Shown piece after piece: positions 3,939 to 47,053 of a stretch of DNA of 48,147 nucleotides. Below the pieces are notes generated by a model, which was not told the DNA's origin, did no database searches, and was given only the letters and a program-made list of their open reading frames with translations. Positions within the stretch are counted from its first letter, which is position 1; each line of letters opens with the position of its first letter. The translations under genes and the position numbers were made by a program. Origin of the DNA: a phage; the sequence record PV636260.1. One strand, written 5' to 3'.

Positions 3939-4895
3939 ATGGGACAAGGAATATATATAAACCTAAACGACGGTCGCCCGGCAATGGAGATAACTTCGGG
4001 TCTTCGCGCACCGTCATGGTGCGGACCCATACAGGCTGACGGGGTTGATTCATCTGGATCGGTGTTTGATTTTGGTTTGCAAATGAGTCCAGGGTCTACT
4101 GCTTTTTGCCTTCCATCTCAGGCTATCTACATAGACGATATGGATTACATCCCGGAGGTGTATTATTTGACTAGTTTTCAGAAGGTAAATGATTCAACCG
4201 GACGAATAACGGTAGGTAATTTTAACGGGCACGGTGGAAGGAGGATGAGATTTTATGGAAACTGCTACGAAATCCTCCCCGCTCAAGCTGGAAATCAGGG
4301 GATACTTGTTAACGATTCAACGAACTTCGCAGCTATACCGAATAACGCCAGATTGATGAGCGCTGCATTTGTTGGGGGGATTCAGGTTAACGGTCAGGCT
4401 CAGTTGCCAGTACAGGGCGTTCCTTTCGGTATGTGGGATAATCCAAACGTAACACTTGAATCTGACGGCAATACAATATGGTGCAGGGATGCAAACTATA
4501 ACGGGATTGATGACGTTGGCGCTAGCGTATACGTGCAACTCGTAATATTTAATAACACTCCACCACCTCCTGGGCTAGGAATAACTATGAGTAACCCTGC
4601 TGGTCAGATCGTTTTCTCAAGCGTTAGACGCCCATTCGTTCTTGGCGGGACTATGGCGATAAATGATGGTTGGCAGTGGTGCGGTGGATTTTTCCCAATA
4701 CTGAGAACAGGTACGATATGCAGAGTTACGGGTGGATATAATAACATTCGATACAAGGGAGTTTGCATGAGCGGCGGTAACGTGAGAAGCGCACCCGGAA
4801 CAAGGGTGGGTAACTATTCTACTCAGAGCGGCGCTCAATTTCCCTTCAATATAAACATTTCAATGCCAATTCCTTTCACTCCAAACATGTATTAA
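3939..4895 (+). CDS. putative receptor-binding protein (distal tail protein)
   Basis: ATG 3939 after RBS AAAGAG; 318 aa, Gly/Asn-rich with PPPP linker; position between cor-like gene and J, converging on J. Confidence 0.5.
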   Translation: MGQGIYINLNDGRPAMEITSGLRAPSWCGPIQADGVDSSGSVFDFGLQMSPGSTAFCLPSQAIYIDDMDYIPEVYYLTSFQKVNDSTGRITVGNFNGHGGRRMRFYGNCYEILPAQAGNQGILVNDSTNFAAIPNNARLMSAAFVGGIQVNGQAQLPVQGVPFGMWDNPNVTLESDGNTIWCRDANYNGIDDVGASVYVQLVIFNNTPPPPGLGITMSNPAGQIVFSSVRRPFVLGGTMAINDGWQWCGGFFPILRTGTICRVTGGYNNIRYKGVCMSGGNVRSAPGTRVGNYSTQSGAQFPFNINISMPIPFTPNMY

Positions 4896-13910: not shown

Positions 13911-14542
13911 GTTATTCTGCTTAGCAATCATTTCAAGCGCTTTCGCTTCCATGATCCTAACGTCCTGCAATGCCAGTTCTTCATCTTCTATTTTATAGAT
14001 TTTAAACAACATAGGCAAAACATTATAGTCAAGACCATAAGCGCCAGCGCCTGAACTTCTCCACTGAGTGAGCATTGATGTAAAAACATTCCAAGCCTTC
14101 ACCATTTCAGCGTCGCCAATTATCGTTTCAGGTTCCTCGTCTTCATAGTCTGAAAGACTTAAACCAACCGATCGCAATTGTTCCTCTGTTGGCGGCTTCT
14201 GATATAACAGATAGACCGCCTTTTTTAGTTTTTTGCGCGGTGTCCGGCAAGAGCCTTGATGTAAGTCGCTGTCAGGTTGTACGCTGCTGAAGGATAATAC
14301 TGAACCAGTTTTCGCGCATTTTCTTCGTTAAATTCTTCTTCAAGGTTCCATCCTGACGCGATCTTGGTAATGAACTCGCTGTCGTTCATTTCTCCCTGGT
14401 TGGCATACATATCCTGAACTTCTTTACTGGAAAGGTGGCGTACAGTGAAAATGATCGTTGCATCTTCACCGTTAGGCATGGTGAAGGTAACTGGAAGTTT
14501 GAAGTCTGGAAGTTGACCAAGAATAAAATTAAATTTAGCCAT
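13908..14542 (-). CDS. tail assembly chaperone -1 frameshift fusion product (gpGT-like)
   Basis: Slippery heptamer A_AAA_AAC (complement of 14228-14234) at the last codons of G; the -1 frame is open into ORF 13908..14177. Confidence 0.7.
14225..14542 (-). CDS. tail assembly chaperone (gpG-like)
   Basis: RBS CAGGAGAAA; 105 aa; immediately upstream of tape measure with slippery site at its 3' end. Confidence 0.8.
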   Translation of the reverse strand: MAKFNFILGQLPDFKLPVTFTMPNGEDATIIFTVRHLSSKEVQDMYANQGEMNDSEFITKIASGWNLEEEFNEENARKLVQYYPSAAYNLTATYIKALAGHRAKN

Positions 14543-15725: not shown

Positions 15726-16158
15726 TTTGTTGTCTCCTTGCTTGCTTTATTGCGTCTGCCATATACGATCGCAATCTCAATGCAACCAGTCCGACGACTC
15801 CGTTTGGTGCTTGTTGTGAATGACCGTACTCAAGAGAGTTTGCATAAATCAACATGTTTGAGAAGTGAACTGATGTTATCGCACCTCCACGGCTGAACAT
15901 GCCATAAGTTTTTGCTTGCTCCTCACTACGGACGACGCTGCCAGTTTTATCGTATCGATTTAATGCGTAGTTAGGGATTTCGTTAAAAGTTATCTGCCAG
16001 TTACCCTTAAAGCGCCCAGTGTCGACGGGAGAACGGCTAACGAGCGCGTCGTGAACATCCCTTACAAATATCTCAATGGAATGTTCTAACGTGCTTTCAG
16101 CGGCCTTAATCCACGCATCAATCTCACCTTGAAATCTACGAATCTGATAATTAGCCAC
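15715..16158 (-). CDS. tail completion protein (gpZ / HK97 gp10-like), putative
   Basis: GTG start after GGAGGG; synteny. Confidence 0.5.
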   Translation of the reverse strand: MANYQIRRFQGEIDAWIKAAESTLEHSIEIFVRDVHDALVSRSPVDTGRFKGNWQITFNEIPNYALNRYDKTGSVVRSEEQAKTYGMFSRGGAITSVHFSNMLIYANSLEYGHSQQAPNGVVGLVALRLRSYMADAIKQARRQQNAL

Positions 16159-16522
16159 CTACTGATACCCTCCGCAATACTGGGCGATAGGCGACTGGTT
16201 TCAGTGACGCCTGAACCGGGCGAGCATCAACGACAACATGACGAACGCCGTCAATCTCTATATGGTCACCTTCGTTTATTTCATGGTCGTTATTGAAGAT
16301 CCCCAAAAGGTCTGAGGTGCGGATAGTCTCCCCGTCAATCTCACGCGCGTTCGGTCTTCGCGTCGCGCCGGATATTGGAATAATCTGTTCCATCGGTGGG
16401 ATCTCGAATCCGTTTTCATCATATCCGTATTCACCTTGCTTTATCAGGTTCATAGGTCTTGATGCATCGGTGAAGAAATCCACGCCTTTGCGAGCCATCC
16501 TTTCGATCTGTGAGTAGTTCAT
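16151..16522 (-). CDS. head closure / head-tail joining protein, putative
   Basis: Start at ATG 16522 after GGAGG; synteny. Confidence 0.5.
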   Translation of the reverse strand: MNYSQIERMARKGVDFFTDASRPMNLIKQGEYGYDENGFEIPPMEQIIPISGATRRPNAREIDGETIRTSDLLGIFNNDHEINEGDHIEIDGVRHVVVDARPVQASLKPVAYRPVLRRVSVGG

Positions 16523-28181: not shown

Positions 28182-28626
28182 ACCAGTAATCTAACTCGCG
28201 TCCAACCCAGGCGTCAAAGTCACTTTGGCAGAATGTGCCGCTATAATTTTCCATCATTTCATCGATCAGGAAGTTGGCTGGCTCTCCGATGCTATAGAAG
28301 TATAAATCAGCAGCGTTACGCGCCCAGCGCCCGGCATCTTTCTTGCTCATCTTCCAGTATTTAATTGCAATCTTCTTGAATGCGCGAACTACGCGCTTGC
28401 GGATCTTGATATGCTTGTATACCGCATTGCAGCCGTAAGCCATATATTCATTGTTGCCAAGATTCTGCATGATGTACGGATTAACGTCTTTTGACGTAAT
28501 CATCAGTTCGCCATCTCCGCGACGCGCATAATAAATGCTTGCTGTCATGTAGTGACCTTTGAACATTCCAATGCCGTACAGGGTATGTTCATCGTTAGGT
28601 GTATCAATGCAAATCAAATGTTTCAT
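28180..28626 (-). CDS. hypothetical protein
   Basis: Start moved to ATG 28626 with RBS GAGGGAA. Confidence 0.5.
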   Translation of the reverse strand: MKHLICIDTPNDEHTLYGIGMFKGHYMTASIYYARRGDGELMITSKDVNPYIMQNLGNNEYMAYGCNAVYKHIKIRKRVVRAFKKIAIKYWKMSKKDAGRWARNAADLYFYSIGEPANFLIDEMMENYSGTFCQSDFDAWVGRELDYW

Positions 28627-35922: not shown

Positions 35923-36339
35923 ATGAAATCAATCAAACTGAAATGTACTTACGCCGATAAAATCACAGGATTTGAAATTAACAACCTATACAAAGGTCGA
36001 GAGCGTTTCGATGGCACTCGCGAAGTAAAATTAAAATGCGGCAAGTATTTAAAACTTGAAAAGCATGATGAATTACAGATTCACGGATCTGATGAAATCT
36101 TCTTCGCGAAGTTCACTGAGTTGAAAACAAAGACGCTCAAGTGCACCGGGCTTGACCATCGCAACCCAATGAAAAAATCATTCAAAGTTGGCAAGCGTTA
36201 CCAGGTTGAAAGCGGTCGCGCTCTCGGTGGAGTAGCTGGTTACATCTTTGATGAAGATGGTTGTCGCTGGACCTTATTTCGCGAAGAGGTTGGTTTTAGT
36301 ATCGCAGACGGCACAAACTTTGAGGCCAAATACTTATAA
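35923..36339 (+). CDS. hypothetical protein
   Basis: RBS CAGGAG. Confidence 0.55.
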   Translation: MKSIKLKCTYADKITGFEINNLYKGRERFDGTREVKLKCGKYLKLEKHDELQIHGSDEIFFAKFTELKTKTLKCTGLDHRNPMKKSFKVGKRYQVESGRALGGVAGYIFDEDGCRWTLFREEVGFSIADGTNFEAKYL

Positions 36340-45441: not shown

Positions 45442-45470
45442 TTGAATCGTTGTAACGTTTACGCTATAAT
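45442..45470 (+). promoter_or_regulatory. sigma70-type promoter for the HTH regulator gene
   Basis: TTGAAT - 17 bp - TATAAT; flanked by inverted repeat AACGTTTAC / GTAAACGTT. Confidence 0.6.
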
Positions 45471-45488
45471 ACACGGCATAAAGTAAAC

Positions 45489-45510
45489 GTTTTTAGCAAA
45501 AAGTGCTATA
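45489..45510 (-). promoter_or_regulatory. repeated element (ATAGCACTTTTTGCTAAAAAC) upstream of the helicase
   Basis: Its -10-like TATTAT is the complement of the plus-strand TATAAT region. Confidence 0.5.
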
Positions 45511-45521
45511 GGAGAATCAAG

Positions 45522-45974
45522 ATGAGTATTCAACGTATCGCAGAGTCAACTGGTGAAATCGATAAACGTCACATCAATGGTAACAACGGAACACGGCGCG
45601 GTAAAGATAAAAAGCCTCGACAGCGTTGCGGGTTCTATATTCATAAAGAAGAAACACGCGCCGGACTGCGAGCGCGACTTGATGCTCTTATCGAATATTA
45701 CGGCGGCCCTGCGGCCTGCGCAAAGGCTCTAAAAGTTAGCAATCAGACGGTGCAAGGCTGGAAAGATCGAAATATGATTTCATGGCAAGGCGCTGAAGCT
45801 GCGCATCGCGCTTACCGCCGACAGGGGTGCAAAGGATTTCGTGCCGCATGGTTGCGATTCGACCTGAAGTTTGACGGTAACGGCAAGTGCCTTGAGAAGC
45901 GATGCAAGAACAAGAAATTTATGCGCGTCGTGAAGAAGGAAGATATCGGAACTACCAATAGCATTTTTAGTTAA
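45522..45974 (+). CDS. putative DNA-binding regulator (Cro/YdaS-like HTH)
   Basis: RBS AGGAGA; HTH-like AACAKALKVSNQTVQGWKDRNMIS; Cys/His and basic residues. Confidence 0.5.
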   Translation: MSIQRIAESTGEIDKRHINGNNGTRRGKDKKPRQRCGFYIHKEETRAGLRARLDALIEYYGGPAACAKALKVSNQTVQGWKDRNMISWQGAEAAHRAYRRQGCKGFRAAWLRFDLKFDGNGKCLEKRCKNKKFMRVVKKEDIGTTNSIFS

Positions 45975-45977
45975 AAC
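45958..45977 (+). promoter_or_regulatory. variant repeated element (ATAGCATTTTTAGTTAAAAC) overlapping the regulator stop
   Basis: Sequence match. Confidence 0.4.
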
Positions 45978-45982
45978 AAACG

Positions 45983-46019
45983 ACGCGTAGCGGGTTAACA
46001 TCCTTATACGCGTTTTTTA
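45983..46019 (+). terminator. terminator/attenuator-like hairpin upstream of primase
   Basis: ACGCGTA-N17-TACGCGT followed by TTTTTTATTTT. Confidence 0.45.
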
Positions 46020-46035
46020 TTTTGGAGATCTGGAA

Positions 46036-46971
46036 GTGAACGAAGAATTTATGATGTTTCAGAAAGAGGACGTTTTGCCGTACATGAAGGGGTTATGGCG
46101 CGAGGCTTTCCAATCAATCTGCGGATTGCCGAATGATGTTTTTAATAAGAAGCACCAACCTTGCCCCAACTGCGGCGGTAAAGACCGCTTTCGCTGGACC
46201 GATAACTTAAACACTCCTGGCGACGGCGGCGCGATCTGCAACTCATGCGGGAACGACTCCGGGATCGGGTGGCTAATGAAATTAACTGGTATGCCGTACA
46301 GTGAATGTATAAACATCCTGGGGAGATTTCTCGGCAAGGTTCCGCAGGAATACATTGTTAAGGCAAACAAGAAAGCACGCAGGACTCCGGTATCTGGTGT
46401 CAATGTCATGATGGCAGATCATGAAGCGGTGATGAAAGTCATGGAGCGTACAGAGAAGCGCGTAAACACACCTCTAAGCATGTTTGAATCTCTACCTACT
46501 GAATCATTCGACGTTGGCGTAAAACGTCGCGAGGATGGCGGCGAGAGCGTATTTCACACCATACCATGTCAACTTGTACACGAGGACGGTCTTGATGATG
46601 AGTTTTGTAATATTTTGATTATTGATGAGGAGGGTAGGGAGTCATTTTACGCTAAGAAATACACAAGTTGCTCGGTTGCCGTGACTGGTAAAACAGAAAA
46701 AGCGATCTACTTATGCCTTAATTGGATTGATGCTCAGCATATTGCATTTCACACAAAGCAAGAGGTATGGGCCTGCTTCACTCCTGAGAATCTGGAAATG
46801 GTTGCATACAGATATAAAGGGGATCGAGAAGTAAGGGTTGCGTGCGAACCTTCAGACAAGGAGACTTTATACATGGCAGACGACCGACAATTAAAAATAA
46901 TCATCCCAAATCCTGGAGGATACCGCTCAGGAATGCAAGCCAAGTTATTCTCAGCAAGTGACCTACTCTGA
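46036..46971 (+). CDS. DNA primase with N-terminal zinc-binding domain
   Basis: CPNCGG...CNSCGN zinc ribbon; acidic IIDEEG motif; next to the helicase. Confidence 0.7.
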   Translation: MNEEFMMFQKEDVLPYMKGLWREAFQSICGLPNDVFNKKHQPCPNCGGKDRFRWTDNLNTPGDGGAICNSCGNDSGIGWLMKLTGMPYSECINILGRFLGKVPQEYIVKANKKARRTPVSGVNVMMADHEAVMKVMERTEKRVNTPLSMFESLPTESFDVGVKRREDGGESVFHTIPCQLVHEDGLDDEFCNILIIDEEGRESFYAKKYTSCSVAVTGKTEKAIYLCLNWIDAQHIAFHTKQEVWACFTPENLEMVAYRYKGDREVRVACEPSDKETLYMADDRQLKIIIPNPGGYRSGMQAKLFSASDLL

Positions 46972-46993
46972 CCGCCTTCTGGCGGTTTTTTAT
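46971..46993 (+). terminator. intrinsic terminator after primase
   Basis: ACCGCCTTCTGGCGGT + T6. Confidence 0.75.
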
Positions 46994-47010
46994 TGTCCAT
47001 TGCAAGTCGG

Positions 47011-47053
47011 ATAGCACAATGATAAAATCAGCGTTTAGCAATTCGTGCTATTT
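47011..47053. promoter_or_regulatory. head-to-head pair of repeated elements upstream of the tail fiber gene
   Basis: ATAGCACAATGATAAAATC (plus) and the complement of ATAGCACGAATTGCTAAAC; then RBS AAGGAG and ATG 47072. Confidence 0.5.

Follow-up and report, generated by a model that had tools for sequence, protein, structure and literature searches.

The element considered here is a hairpin with a run of T residues directly behind it, which lies between the gene for a Cro-like regulator and the primase gene in sequence record PV636260.1, a 48,147-nucleotide (nt) stretch of phage DNA referred to below as the window. Judged from the sequence of the window and of its relatives, the hairpin can be taken with good confidence as an intrinsic (Rho-independent) terminator of the regulator transcript, and the copy of a dispersed repeat that ends just before it is likely to belong to a promoter, the −10-like hexamer of which sits in the hairpin loop; that both functions are combined at this site, a terminator of the regulator transcript overlapping a promoter of the primase gene, is favoured with rather more reserve. 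The terminator is of an ordinary and already known kind, and as a finding on its own it is routine and adds little. What is new is the reading of a promoter in the loop, and the value of the analysis lies there and in the architecture of repeat, −10 and hairpin of which the junction is one case.

Anatomy of the regulator–primase junction

The 5′ arm of the hairpin (ACGCGTA, 45983–45989) begins 8 nt after the regulator stop codon, the open reading frame (ORF) ending at 45974, and it pairs with a 3′ arm (TACGCGT) at 46007–46013. An earlier note on this DNA, made from the letters of the window, had described a stem of 7 base pairs (bp) with a 17-nt loop; the arms and the 17 nt that separate them (45990–46006, gcGGGttaacatCCTta) were read correctly, but this interval is not open, as its GGG (45992–94) pairs with CCU (46002–04), and the three inner pairs leave a 2 × 2 internal loop and a terminal loop of 7 nt. 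The stem-loop of an intrinsic terminator is therefore found in the window as 7 bp, a 2 × 2 internal loop, 3 bp and a 7-nt loop, and the U-tract is found as well, with UUUUUAUUUU at 46014–46023 adjoining the last base of the stem. The order at the junction is T-run, GGAG (46024–46027), N8 and GTG (46036); the stem ends 10 nt before the ribosome-binding site (RBS) of primase, not 15 nt as had been noted, and the T-run adjoins the GGAG. The letters of the hairpin and T-run between regulator and primase were confirmed as first described, and the variant regulatory element reported just upstream is indeed there, as a variant repeat copy at 45958–45976.

Folded by itself, the 31-nt hairpin reaches −12.3 kcal/mol (z −2.8; 1 of 200 shuffled sequences folds equally well), and in an 81-nt context the fold reaches −23.4 (z −3.9). 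A single hairpin with a z-score of −2.8 is not significant genome-wide, and a terminator scan of the window returned 7 candidate sites where 7.9 are expected, which is no enrichment, the junction hairpin being missed because the scan had a loop limit of 8 nt; the significance of the hairpin hence rests on comparison with relatives rather than on the score of a single sequence. The modest z-score and the scan without enrichment are what could be said for the simplest rival explanation, namely that a palindrome (ACGCGT, MluI-type) has arisen by chance beside a T-rich ribosome-binding region and is functionless. Against this stand the positional and structural conservation of the hairpin, the compensatory changes across genera and the invariant columns of the T-run that are described in the following section, and with these comparative data the chance explanation is effectively refuted and barely conceivable.

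Conservation of the hairpin among T1-like phages

A 1-kilobase query around the hairpin matched 74 phage records, with Escherichia phage JMPW1 at 97.5% identity and T1 at 95.5%, and by these sequence matches the window is assigned to Tunavirus (Drexlerviridae), as a T1-like phage. The region upstream of the primase start was taken from 34 loci and 21 regulator–primase junctions were analysed in detail, covering Tunavirus, Webervirus, Henuseptimavirus, Warwickvirus, Kyungwonvirus, Hanrivervirus, Nouzillyvirus, Sauletekiovirus, Tlsvirus and metagenomic relatives. A primase relative at 33% identity (L019), which has no upstream hairpin, was left out of the detailed set, and phage P818, in which an HNH gene has been inserted into the junction, was treated on its own. 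In 20 of the 21 junctions, from at least 10 genera, T4–T9 and then GGAG or GAGG follow a G+C-rich hairpin (−10.5 to −23 kcal/mol); for the 21st, herni, the extraction kept an inner 4-bp hairpin only, and the survey of upstream regions shows a 6 + 4 bp stem there. At least nine unrelated stem sequences occur at the junction, examples being ACGCGTAG.., GATCGCGTGTGTGG.., AAACGCCTGCCGGG.., GCCCACGTA.., GCCTGGCATGG.., AAGGTTGTGCCA.. and AGGCTCGGTC.., and the orthologous stems of T1 and most relatives have 12–16 pairs and −15 to −23 kcal/mol.

Covariation was computed on a structure-guided (covariance-model) alignment of 10 closer sequences, in which 93.1% of cells are paired and 6 of 13 pairs have changed on both sides. 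The covariation score of 0.412 compares with 0.20 in shuffles, none of 500 of which reached it, and with at most 0.11 when the partner was slid; the structure of the hairpin, which lies downstream of a co-directional gene, has been kept by compensatory change. RNAalifold, applied to a plain MAFFT alignment of 17 junctions, returned no structure because stems of differing length are out of register, and was replaced by covariance-model alignment together with per-sequence folding; a first covariance-model alignment (A3) held minus-strand or spurious matches and was excluded from the pair counts. Four T columns of the T-run are invariant across 17 sequences. The sense RNA is more stable than the antisense in 16 of 18 orthologues (p=1.8e-4), and G·U pairs in the orthologues number 2–4 on the sense strand versus 0–1 on the antisense. 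Covariation, sense-strand stability and G·U bias together argue that selection has acted on a transcribed RNA hairpin and not on a DNA palindrome.

The orthologous site has already been marked in several phages. The T1 record (AY216660.1 / NC_005833.1) has it at 35930..35969 as “terminator, rho-independent”, with the primase RBS directly after it, and it is annotated as a terminator in SA32RD (TransTermHP, WebGeSTer) and in the Webervirus phages Skenny and Solomon; for TLS it is listed as terminator T57, at −17.1 kcal/mol, in Table S1 of the analysis published in 2024 (PMC11447400). Many other annotated terminators of AY216660.1 also adjoin the next RBS (e.g. 4001–4034, 14237–14269, 16107–16137, 16445–16470 and 28568–28594), and from these positions it seems a general design in T1 that the T-run of a terminator also serves the following gene as its A/U-rich leader. 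In the Escherichia phage P818 (positions 540–1200 of the locus) an HNH homing-endonuclease gene on the opposite strand has been inserted precisely at the junction of the regulator and primase genes. The repeat has survived there; the hairpin behind it is another one (GGGGC gcta GCCCC) that has neither a −10 nor a T-run, and the sequence upstream of primase is unrelated.

A dispersed repeat with a coupled −10 hexamer

The motif ATAGCAY occurs 33 times in the window, where 12.9 are expected, and forms the core of a 19–21-nt element, ATAGCACnnnTTGnTAAAA, which has 24 copies in the window (≥12 of 15 positions) as against about 2 in a Markov null. The repeat itself is published: TLS carries a 21-nt direct repeat in 21 copies, oriented with transcription and about 76 nt before start codons, and the same repeat is found in T1, Rtp and Rogue1 (PMC11447400). 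Its TLS consensus is aaATAGCACnnnTTGnTAAAA and its copies are labelled DR1–DR18, of which DR10 is orthologous to 45958–76 and is listed separately from T57 (PMC11447400). The authors of that study, who found only three sigma70 promoters in TLS and no RNA polymerase or sigma gene, left the function of the repeat open and suggested a stoperator, an enhancer or an UP-like element (PMC11447400).

The coupling of the repeat to a −10 appears not to have been described before. In 17 of the 24 window copies a hexamer nAnnnT stands exactly 38 nt after the repeat start (TATAGT, TATGAT, CATAAT and TATCAT are among those found), and the other offsets from 25 to 54 have 0–5 each; the offset was replicated in T1 (17 of 24 copies), in Webervirus mtp23 (10 of 13) and in Hanrivervirus E6 (15 of 20, at 37 or 38). 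A position matrix built over 38 sites shows conservation also where no selection had been applied: 35 of the sites have G at −14, the signature of an extended −10, 30 have T at −12, 25 have C at −1, and 31 have A at +1. Downstream, the Shine–Dalgarno (SD) sequence and start codon follow 24–40 nt after the hexamer, and upstream the repeat spans about −51 to −31; within it lies an imperfect dyad, TAGCA-N5-TG(C/T)TA, with its centre near −42. Repeat and hexamer together have, as far as sequence goes, the anatomy of a sigma70 extended −10 promoter with an upstream factor site.

Two other ways of fitting the repeat to a promoter were set aside. TTGCTA within the repeat was rejected as a −35, since its spacer to the hexamer is 22 nt and a hexamer 17 nt downstream of it is not conserved. 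A canonical UP element is unlikely as judged by eye: positions −50 to −44 hold the G+C-containing core ATAGCAC, and an A-tract is missing from −46 to −38. Some 17 composite elements (repeat, −10 at 38, G at −14, C/A at −1/+1, and SD and start codon about 30 nt further on) lie before early and replication genes in the window, and they are largely missing from the block of structural genes.

The promoter-like element inside the hairpin

The copy at the primase junction deviates from the consensus at C7→T and at TTG→TAG; as described for the TLS repeats, it is on the same strand as the gene that it precedes, here the + strand of primase, and starts 78 nt before the GTG at 46036. The hexamer in the hairpin loop is found at offset 38, with G45994, a pyrimidine at −1 (T46007) and an A at +1 (A46008), and the GTG start codon follows 34 nt after it. 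In all 21 loci the hexamer stands 37–39 nt after the repeat, and across 17 junction sequences its A and T are the only near-invariant columns of the loop, while the stems vary.

The last residues of the regulator (..TNSIFS in the window, ..STNS elsewhere in the family) come from translation of the repeat (45958–45974). In Skenny the regulator ORF is ended by the TAG of ATAGCAC, and the repeat is conserved there although it lies outside the regulator ORF. In Skenny and AAS23 the ORF is shorter and the repeat is kept, so that selection is on the DNA element and not on a peptide tail. A sigma70 scan match at 45995–46023 (TTAACA, 17 nt, TATTTT; 9/12) was rejected, as its start would fall after the SD sequence, and its spacing varies from genus to genus with the length of the stem.

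Hairpins at other copies of the repeat

At 14 of the 17 composite sites of the window (mean per-site z −3.2) the stretch from the repeat to the predicted start folds into a stable hairpin, and the mean minimum free energy at composite sites is −12.4, versus −5.5 in genome controls (p=1.5e-7); this enrichment was replicated in T1 (p=3e-9), mtp23 (p=3e-6) and E6 (p=0.002). The hairpins are copy-specific and usually have the −10 in the loop, e.g. at 28180-, 30335-, 35843, 31627-, 26885-, 35327+ and 36343+. A hairpin is missing from some E6 copies, and in some copies it stands on the 5′ side of the hexamer, the spacing from repeat to hexamer being kept. Paralogous stems covary (AAGGgCA/TGcCCTT, AAGGcCA/TGgCCTT, AAGGtCA/TGaCCTT), and at 29 of 32 repeat copies the sense hairpin is more stable than the antisense (p=2.6e-6). 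These features suggest that the hairpins belong to the RNA of read-through transcripts and are fitted into the promoter of the next gene. Among the repeat copies of each genome examined, a long T-run after the hairpin is found at the primase copy only, and since it alone adds such a run it is specifically the primase copy that resembles a full terminator; the hairpins that have no U-run could serve in 3′-end protection, pausing or weak termination of read-through transcripts.

The same data lend something to an explanation in which the junction hairpin is an RNA 3′-end or stability hairpin and not a terminator, marking or protecting the processed upstream mRNA or pausing the polymerase, with the T-run being the primase leader. 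Hairpins between repeat and start are indeed a family-wide feature (the 14 of 17 window sites, and T1, mtp23 and E6 likewise), they share the sense-strand bias and most have no T-run. At the junction, however, a long T-run right after the stem is kept in every genus, with its four invariant columns, and the hairpin is longer and more G+C-rich than most of its paralogues. For E. coli RNA polymerase, a hairpin followed by a U-tract is enough to signal intrinsic termination, and four programs call a terminator at this site (TransTermHP and WebGeSTer for SA32RD, ARNold and Genome2D for TLS). A stability hairpin is on balance unlikely, and a terminator is preferred.

An element acting at the level of DNA is far less probable. 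The inverted repeat would then be an operator of the adjacent regulator, or a cruciform that exposes a single-stranded −10 in the manner of phage N4, and this would suit the observation that an inverted repeat flanks a −10-like hexamer at the junction and at about 10 other copies, as well as the 9-bp inverted repeat (45454–62/45483–91) at the divergent regulator/helicase −10, where no upstream transcript is expected. But the arm sequences vary among the copies of one genome and among genera, so that no single protein could read them; the G·U pairs of the stems are A·C mismatches on the other strand, and the sense strand is the more stable one; and some copies have no hairpin, or have it 5′ of the hexamer, with spacing kept. 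Nor was an RNA polymerase or sigma gene found in TLS by its authors (PMC11447400).

The allele of the window and the question of attenuation

T1 and most Tunavirus have the hairpin allele ...CCTTCTACGCGT and the window has ...CCTTATACGCGT, one base apart from T1. The A at 46006, which is C in T1, breaks an eighth pair, a G–C, and lowers the stability from −17.2 to −14.2 kcal/mol. Over 45955–46040 the window has no identical counterpart in 58 Tunavirus records, the best matches differing by one base, and among these records C→A at 46006 stands as a private substitution of the window, on account of which its terminator would be weaker than those of its relatives. The earlier note had attributed the weakness to a large loop; the loop has 7 nt, T1 and most relatives have 12–16 pairs, and the apparent large loop is partly this private mutation.

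That note had gone on to suggest a regulated attenuator of primase expression. On such a reading the hairpin would be a conditional terminator in the primase leader, formed or not depending on a competing RNA fold, on ribosomes translating the regulator ORF or on some bound factor, and the level of primase would be set by read-through from the regulator promoter. There is some material for such a view in the window. A segment within the regulator ORF can form a fortuitous 8–9 bp helix (45923–31/45980–88) that sequesters the 5′ arm, and can compete because A46006 costs about 3 kcal/mol; the probability of the terminator stem in the window varies with context (0.04–0.98), and values of 0.01–0.23 were obtained with 60–80 nt of upstream sequence. 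The stop codon 8 nt before the 5′ arm would also allow a terminating ribosome to interfere, on textbook ribosome footprints.

The relatives give another picture. In all 14 that were tested, including T1, the stem probability is at least 0.88 in every context from 40 to 250 nt; no conserved, mutually exclusive anti-terminator was found among them, and the helix 45923–31/45980–88, being specific to the window and absent as a competitor in T1, which is one base apart in the hairpin, was rejected as a conserved element. An Rfam search of the junction gave no match with E up to 1, and no short leader ORF lies between the regulator stop codon and the hairpin. The attenuator class is not supported, since its defining feature, a conserved anti-terminator, is absent; moreover, the weakness of the stem comes from a private substitution, the distance from stop codon to hairpin differs among genera, and a promoter-like element at the spacing fixed in the family accounts better for the conserved loop. 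Attenuation is thus very unlikely, although an attenuator sensor of another kind, an RNA-binding protein, is conceivable, and the broader claim that the hairpin controls primase transcription fared well, such gating being judged probable.

Neighbouring genes and other features

The upstream ORF encodes a protein with a Cro-like helix-turn-helix: it has a weak P22_Cro match (residues 55–82, E 5e-5, below the Pfam cut-off), its family profile matches the Cro structures 5w8y, 3bd1 and 1rzs, and RefSeq and the T1 record label it a transcriptional regulator. A promoter equivalent to that of the regulator (Table 1) is present in nearly all genera checked, 49–56 nt before the regulator start and with TATAAT in most. 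The hexamer TATTAT directed at the helicase gene (minus strand, 45471–66) shares base pairs with the regulator −10 TATAAT (plus strand, 45465–70), and because the two occupy the same base pairs RNA polymerase can take only one orientation at a time; the arrangement of overlapping −10s is kept across genera and looks like a switch. The 9-bp inverted repeat mentioned above flanks this shared −10 in Tunavirus only.

On the 3′ side of the primase terminator the minus strand holds a full repeat copy (47051-, 14/15), which points back at primase and has TATCCG, not a −10-like hexamer, at offset 38. The core ATAGCAC alone, on the plus strand at 47011, faces this copy, giving an inverted pair about 40 nt apart (window 47011–47051) that could be a decoy or an operator.

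Table 1. Features of the window around the regulator–primase junction, and starts of the composite repeat elements
Feature	Position	Strand	Remarks
Regulator promoter, predicted sigma70, near-consensus (TTGAAT / 17-nt spacer / TATAAT)	45442..45470	+	10/12 in promoter scan; corresponds to P57 in TLS
Repeat copy 45509–45491 with hexamer TATTAT 45471–45466	45466..45509	-	Directed at helicase gene
Regulator ORF, 150 amino acids	45522..45974	+	Upstream gene; its transcript would end at the hairpin
Competing segment GCGCGTCGT	45923..45931	+	Inside regulator ORF; complementary to 45980–45988; window only
Variant repeat copy ATAGCATTTTTAGTTAAAA	45958..45976	+	13/15 specified positions; overlaps last codons and stop codon of regulator
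Putative terminator hairpin	45983..46013	+	Outer stem 45983–89/46007–13; inner stem 45992–94/46002–04; loop 45995–46001
−10-like hexamer TAACAT in hairpin loop	45996..46001	+	38 nt after repeat start; G at −14 (45994)
Predicted transcription start, A	46008	+	Inside 3′ arm; 7 nt after hexamer
T-run TTTTTATTTT	46014..46023	+	Directly after stem; putative U-tract of terminator and A/U-rich leader before SD
Primase SD (GGAG, 46024–27) and GTG start codon (46036–38)	46024..46038	+	
Primase ORF, 311 amino acids, GTG start	46036..46971	+	Downstream gene; Zn_Ribbon_Prim E 6e-16; relatives annotated primase
Second predicted terminator, GACCGCC TTCT GGCGGTT and T-run	46970..46997	+	Overlaps primase stop codon; would close the primase unit
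Composite repeat starts (among others)	26885, 28180, 28700, 30335, 31060, 31627	-	
Composite repeat starts (among others)	33746, 34210, 35843, 36343	+	
Further composite repeat starts	39989, 41977, 43000, 45509	-	
Further composite repeat start	45958	+	Primase junction

A proposed terminator interleaved with a promoter

Taken together, the features suggest that the regulator gene would form a self-contained unit, running from its sigma70 promoter (45442–70) through the Cro-like ORF to the hairpin (45983–46013) and U-run. With this terminator a promoter would be interleaved: the repeat (45958–76) would occupy about −51 to −31, the 5′ arm would be the promoter spacer, the loop would be the −10 hexamer TAACAT, presumably used by the E. 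coli sigma70 RNA polymerase, and transcription would start at about 46008, within the 3′ arm. An RNA from the regulator promoter would contain both arms and be terminated, whereas one from the embedded promoter, which cannot form the hairpin because the 5′ arm is absent from it, would run into primase behind a leader of about 27 nt made up of the U-run and GGAG. From these two fates it would follow that primase expression depends mainly on the repeat-type promoter and not on read-through.

Several observations weigh against this combined model. The strands of the hairpin are nearly equal in the window (sense −14.3, antisense −15.0) and about equal in T1 as well, which is accounted for by the flanking A-run and T-run; equal strand stability could also mean a hairpin site that acts in both directions. 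The annotations in T1, SA32RD, Skenny, Solomon and TLS are all software predictions, and a search of the literature on T1/Drexlerviridae transcriptomics or mapping of transcription start sites found no experimental 3′ or 5′ ends for a T1-like phage. There is no −35 hexamer at 17 nt from the −10 in repeat-type sites, and for this reason their activity probably needs an additional factor; the primase-junction copy is, besides, a variant of the repeat (13/15), and TAACAT is a modest −10. Most other repeat copies have a hairpin but no T-run, so that hairpins in this family are not always terminators. Finally, the context-dependent folding described above suggests that the terminator of the window may be leaky, with more read-through into primase than in T1.

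The nature of the additional factor invites a further and tentative scheme, in which an activator encoded by the phage uses the repeat as its operator, the most economical candidate being the Cro-like regulator itself; as a whole the scheme is possible but doubtful. The activator would bind at about −42 and bring the host sigma70 RNA polymerase to extended −10 promoters that have no −35. Expression would begin with the regulator, whose promoter is the only consensus sigma70 promoter of the region and whose transcript the hairpin would stop; the regulator would then fire the promoter within its own terminator, and so primase, and the opposed promoter that overlaps its own −10, and so helicase, by which the regulator would be shut off, together with roughly 15 other repeat copies before early genes. 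If true, this would place a compact terminator/promoter switch at the heart of the T1 transcription programme.

T1-like phages (Drexlerviridae) are common contaminants and candidates for phage therapy, and their transcription programme is essentially unmapped. The composite motif, with its fixed spacing, its G at −14 and its C/A at −1/+1, provides a testable promoter model for about 17–20 early and middle genes per genome, and the primase junction illustrates how a terminator and a repeat-type promoter can share 60 nt. Confirmation of the model would correct annotations that treat terminator and direct repeat as unrelated features, and would explain how primase is expressed despite a terminator adjoining its RBS.

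Comparison with known systems

The nearest counterparts are the terminator between gp23 (the regulator gene) and primase in T1 and T57 of TLS, which are orthologous to the site in the window and have the same neighbours, T-run and abutting RBS. The window has A in place of C at 46006, one base apart from T1, and no annotation of these sites mentions the −10-like hexamer in the loop. The TLS direct repeats, of which 45958–76 is a copy, are here found to be coupled at 38 nt to a −10, often with a hairpin.

As regards promoters, the class II activator-dependent and extended −10 promoters of E. coli, such as lambda PRM with cI at OR2 and promoters with CRP sites centred at −41.5, offer the closest likeness: the repeat dyad has its centre near −42 and 10 bp between the centres of its half-sites, there is no −35 at 17 nt, a conserved G at −14 accompanies the −10, and a Cro-like helix-turn-helix regulator is encoded next door. 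The 3′ half-site of the repeat is less conserved than the 5′ half and the flanks are asymmetric, in contrast to those promoters, and the likeness is one of sequence.

Transcription attenuators, such as the trp and pyrBI leaders and the terminators of riboswitches or T-boxes, likewise have a hairpin and U-run immediately upstream of the RBS of the regulated gene, but the primase junction differs from them in having no conserved anti-terminator, sensor, leader peptide or Rfam match. Hairpin or single-strand promoters, known from the virion RNA polymerase of phage N4 and from Frpo, share with the junction a short inverted repeat centred on promoter-critical bases; here, in contrast, the arms vary freely, the G·U asymmetry is of the RNA type and the hairpin is dispensable in some copies, and no phage RNA polymerase is known.

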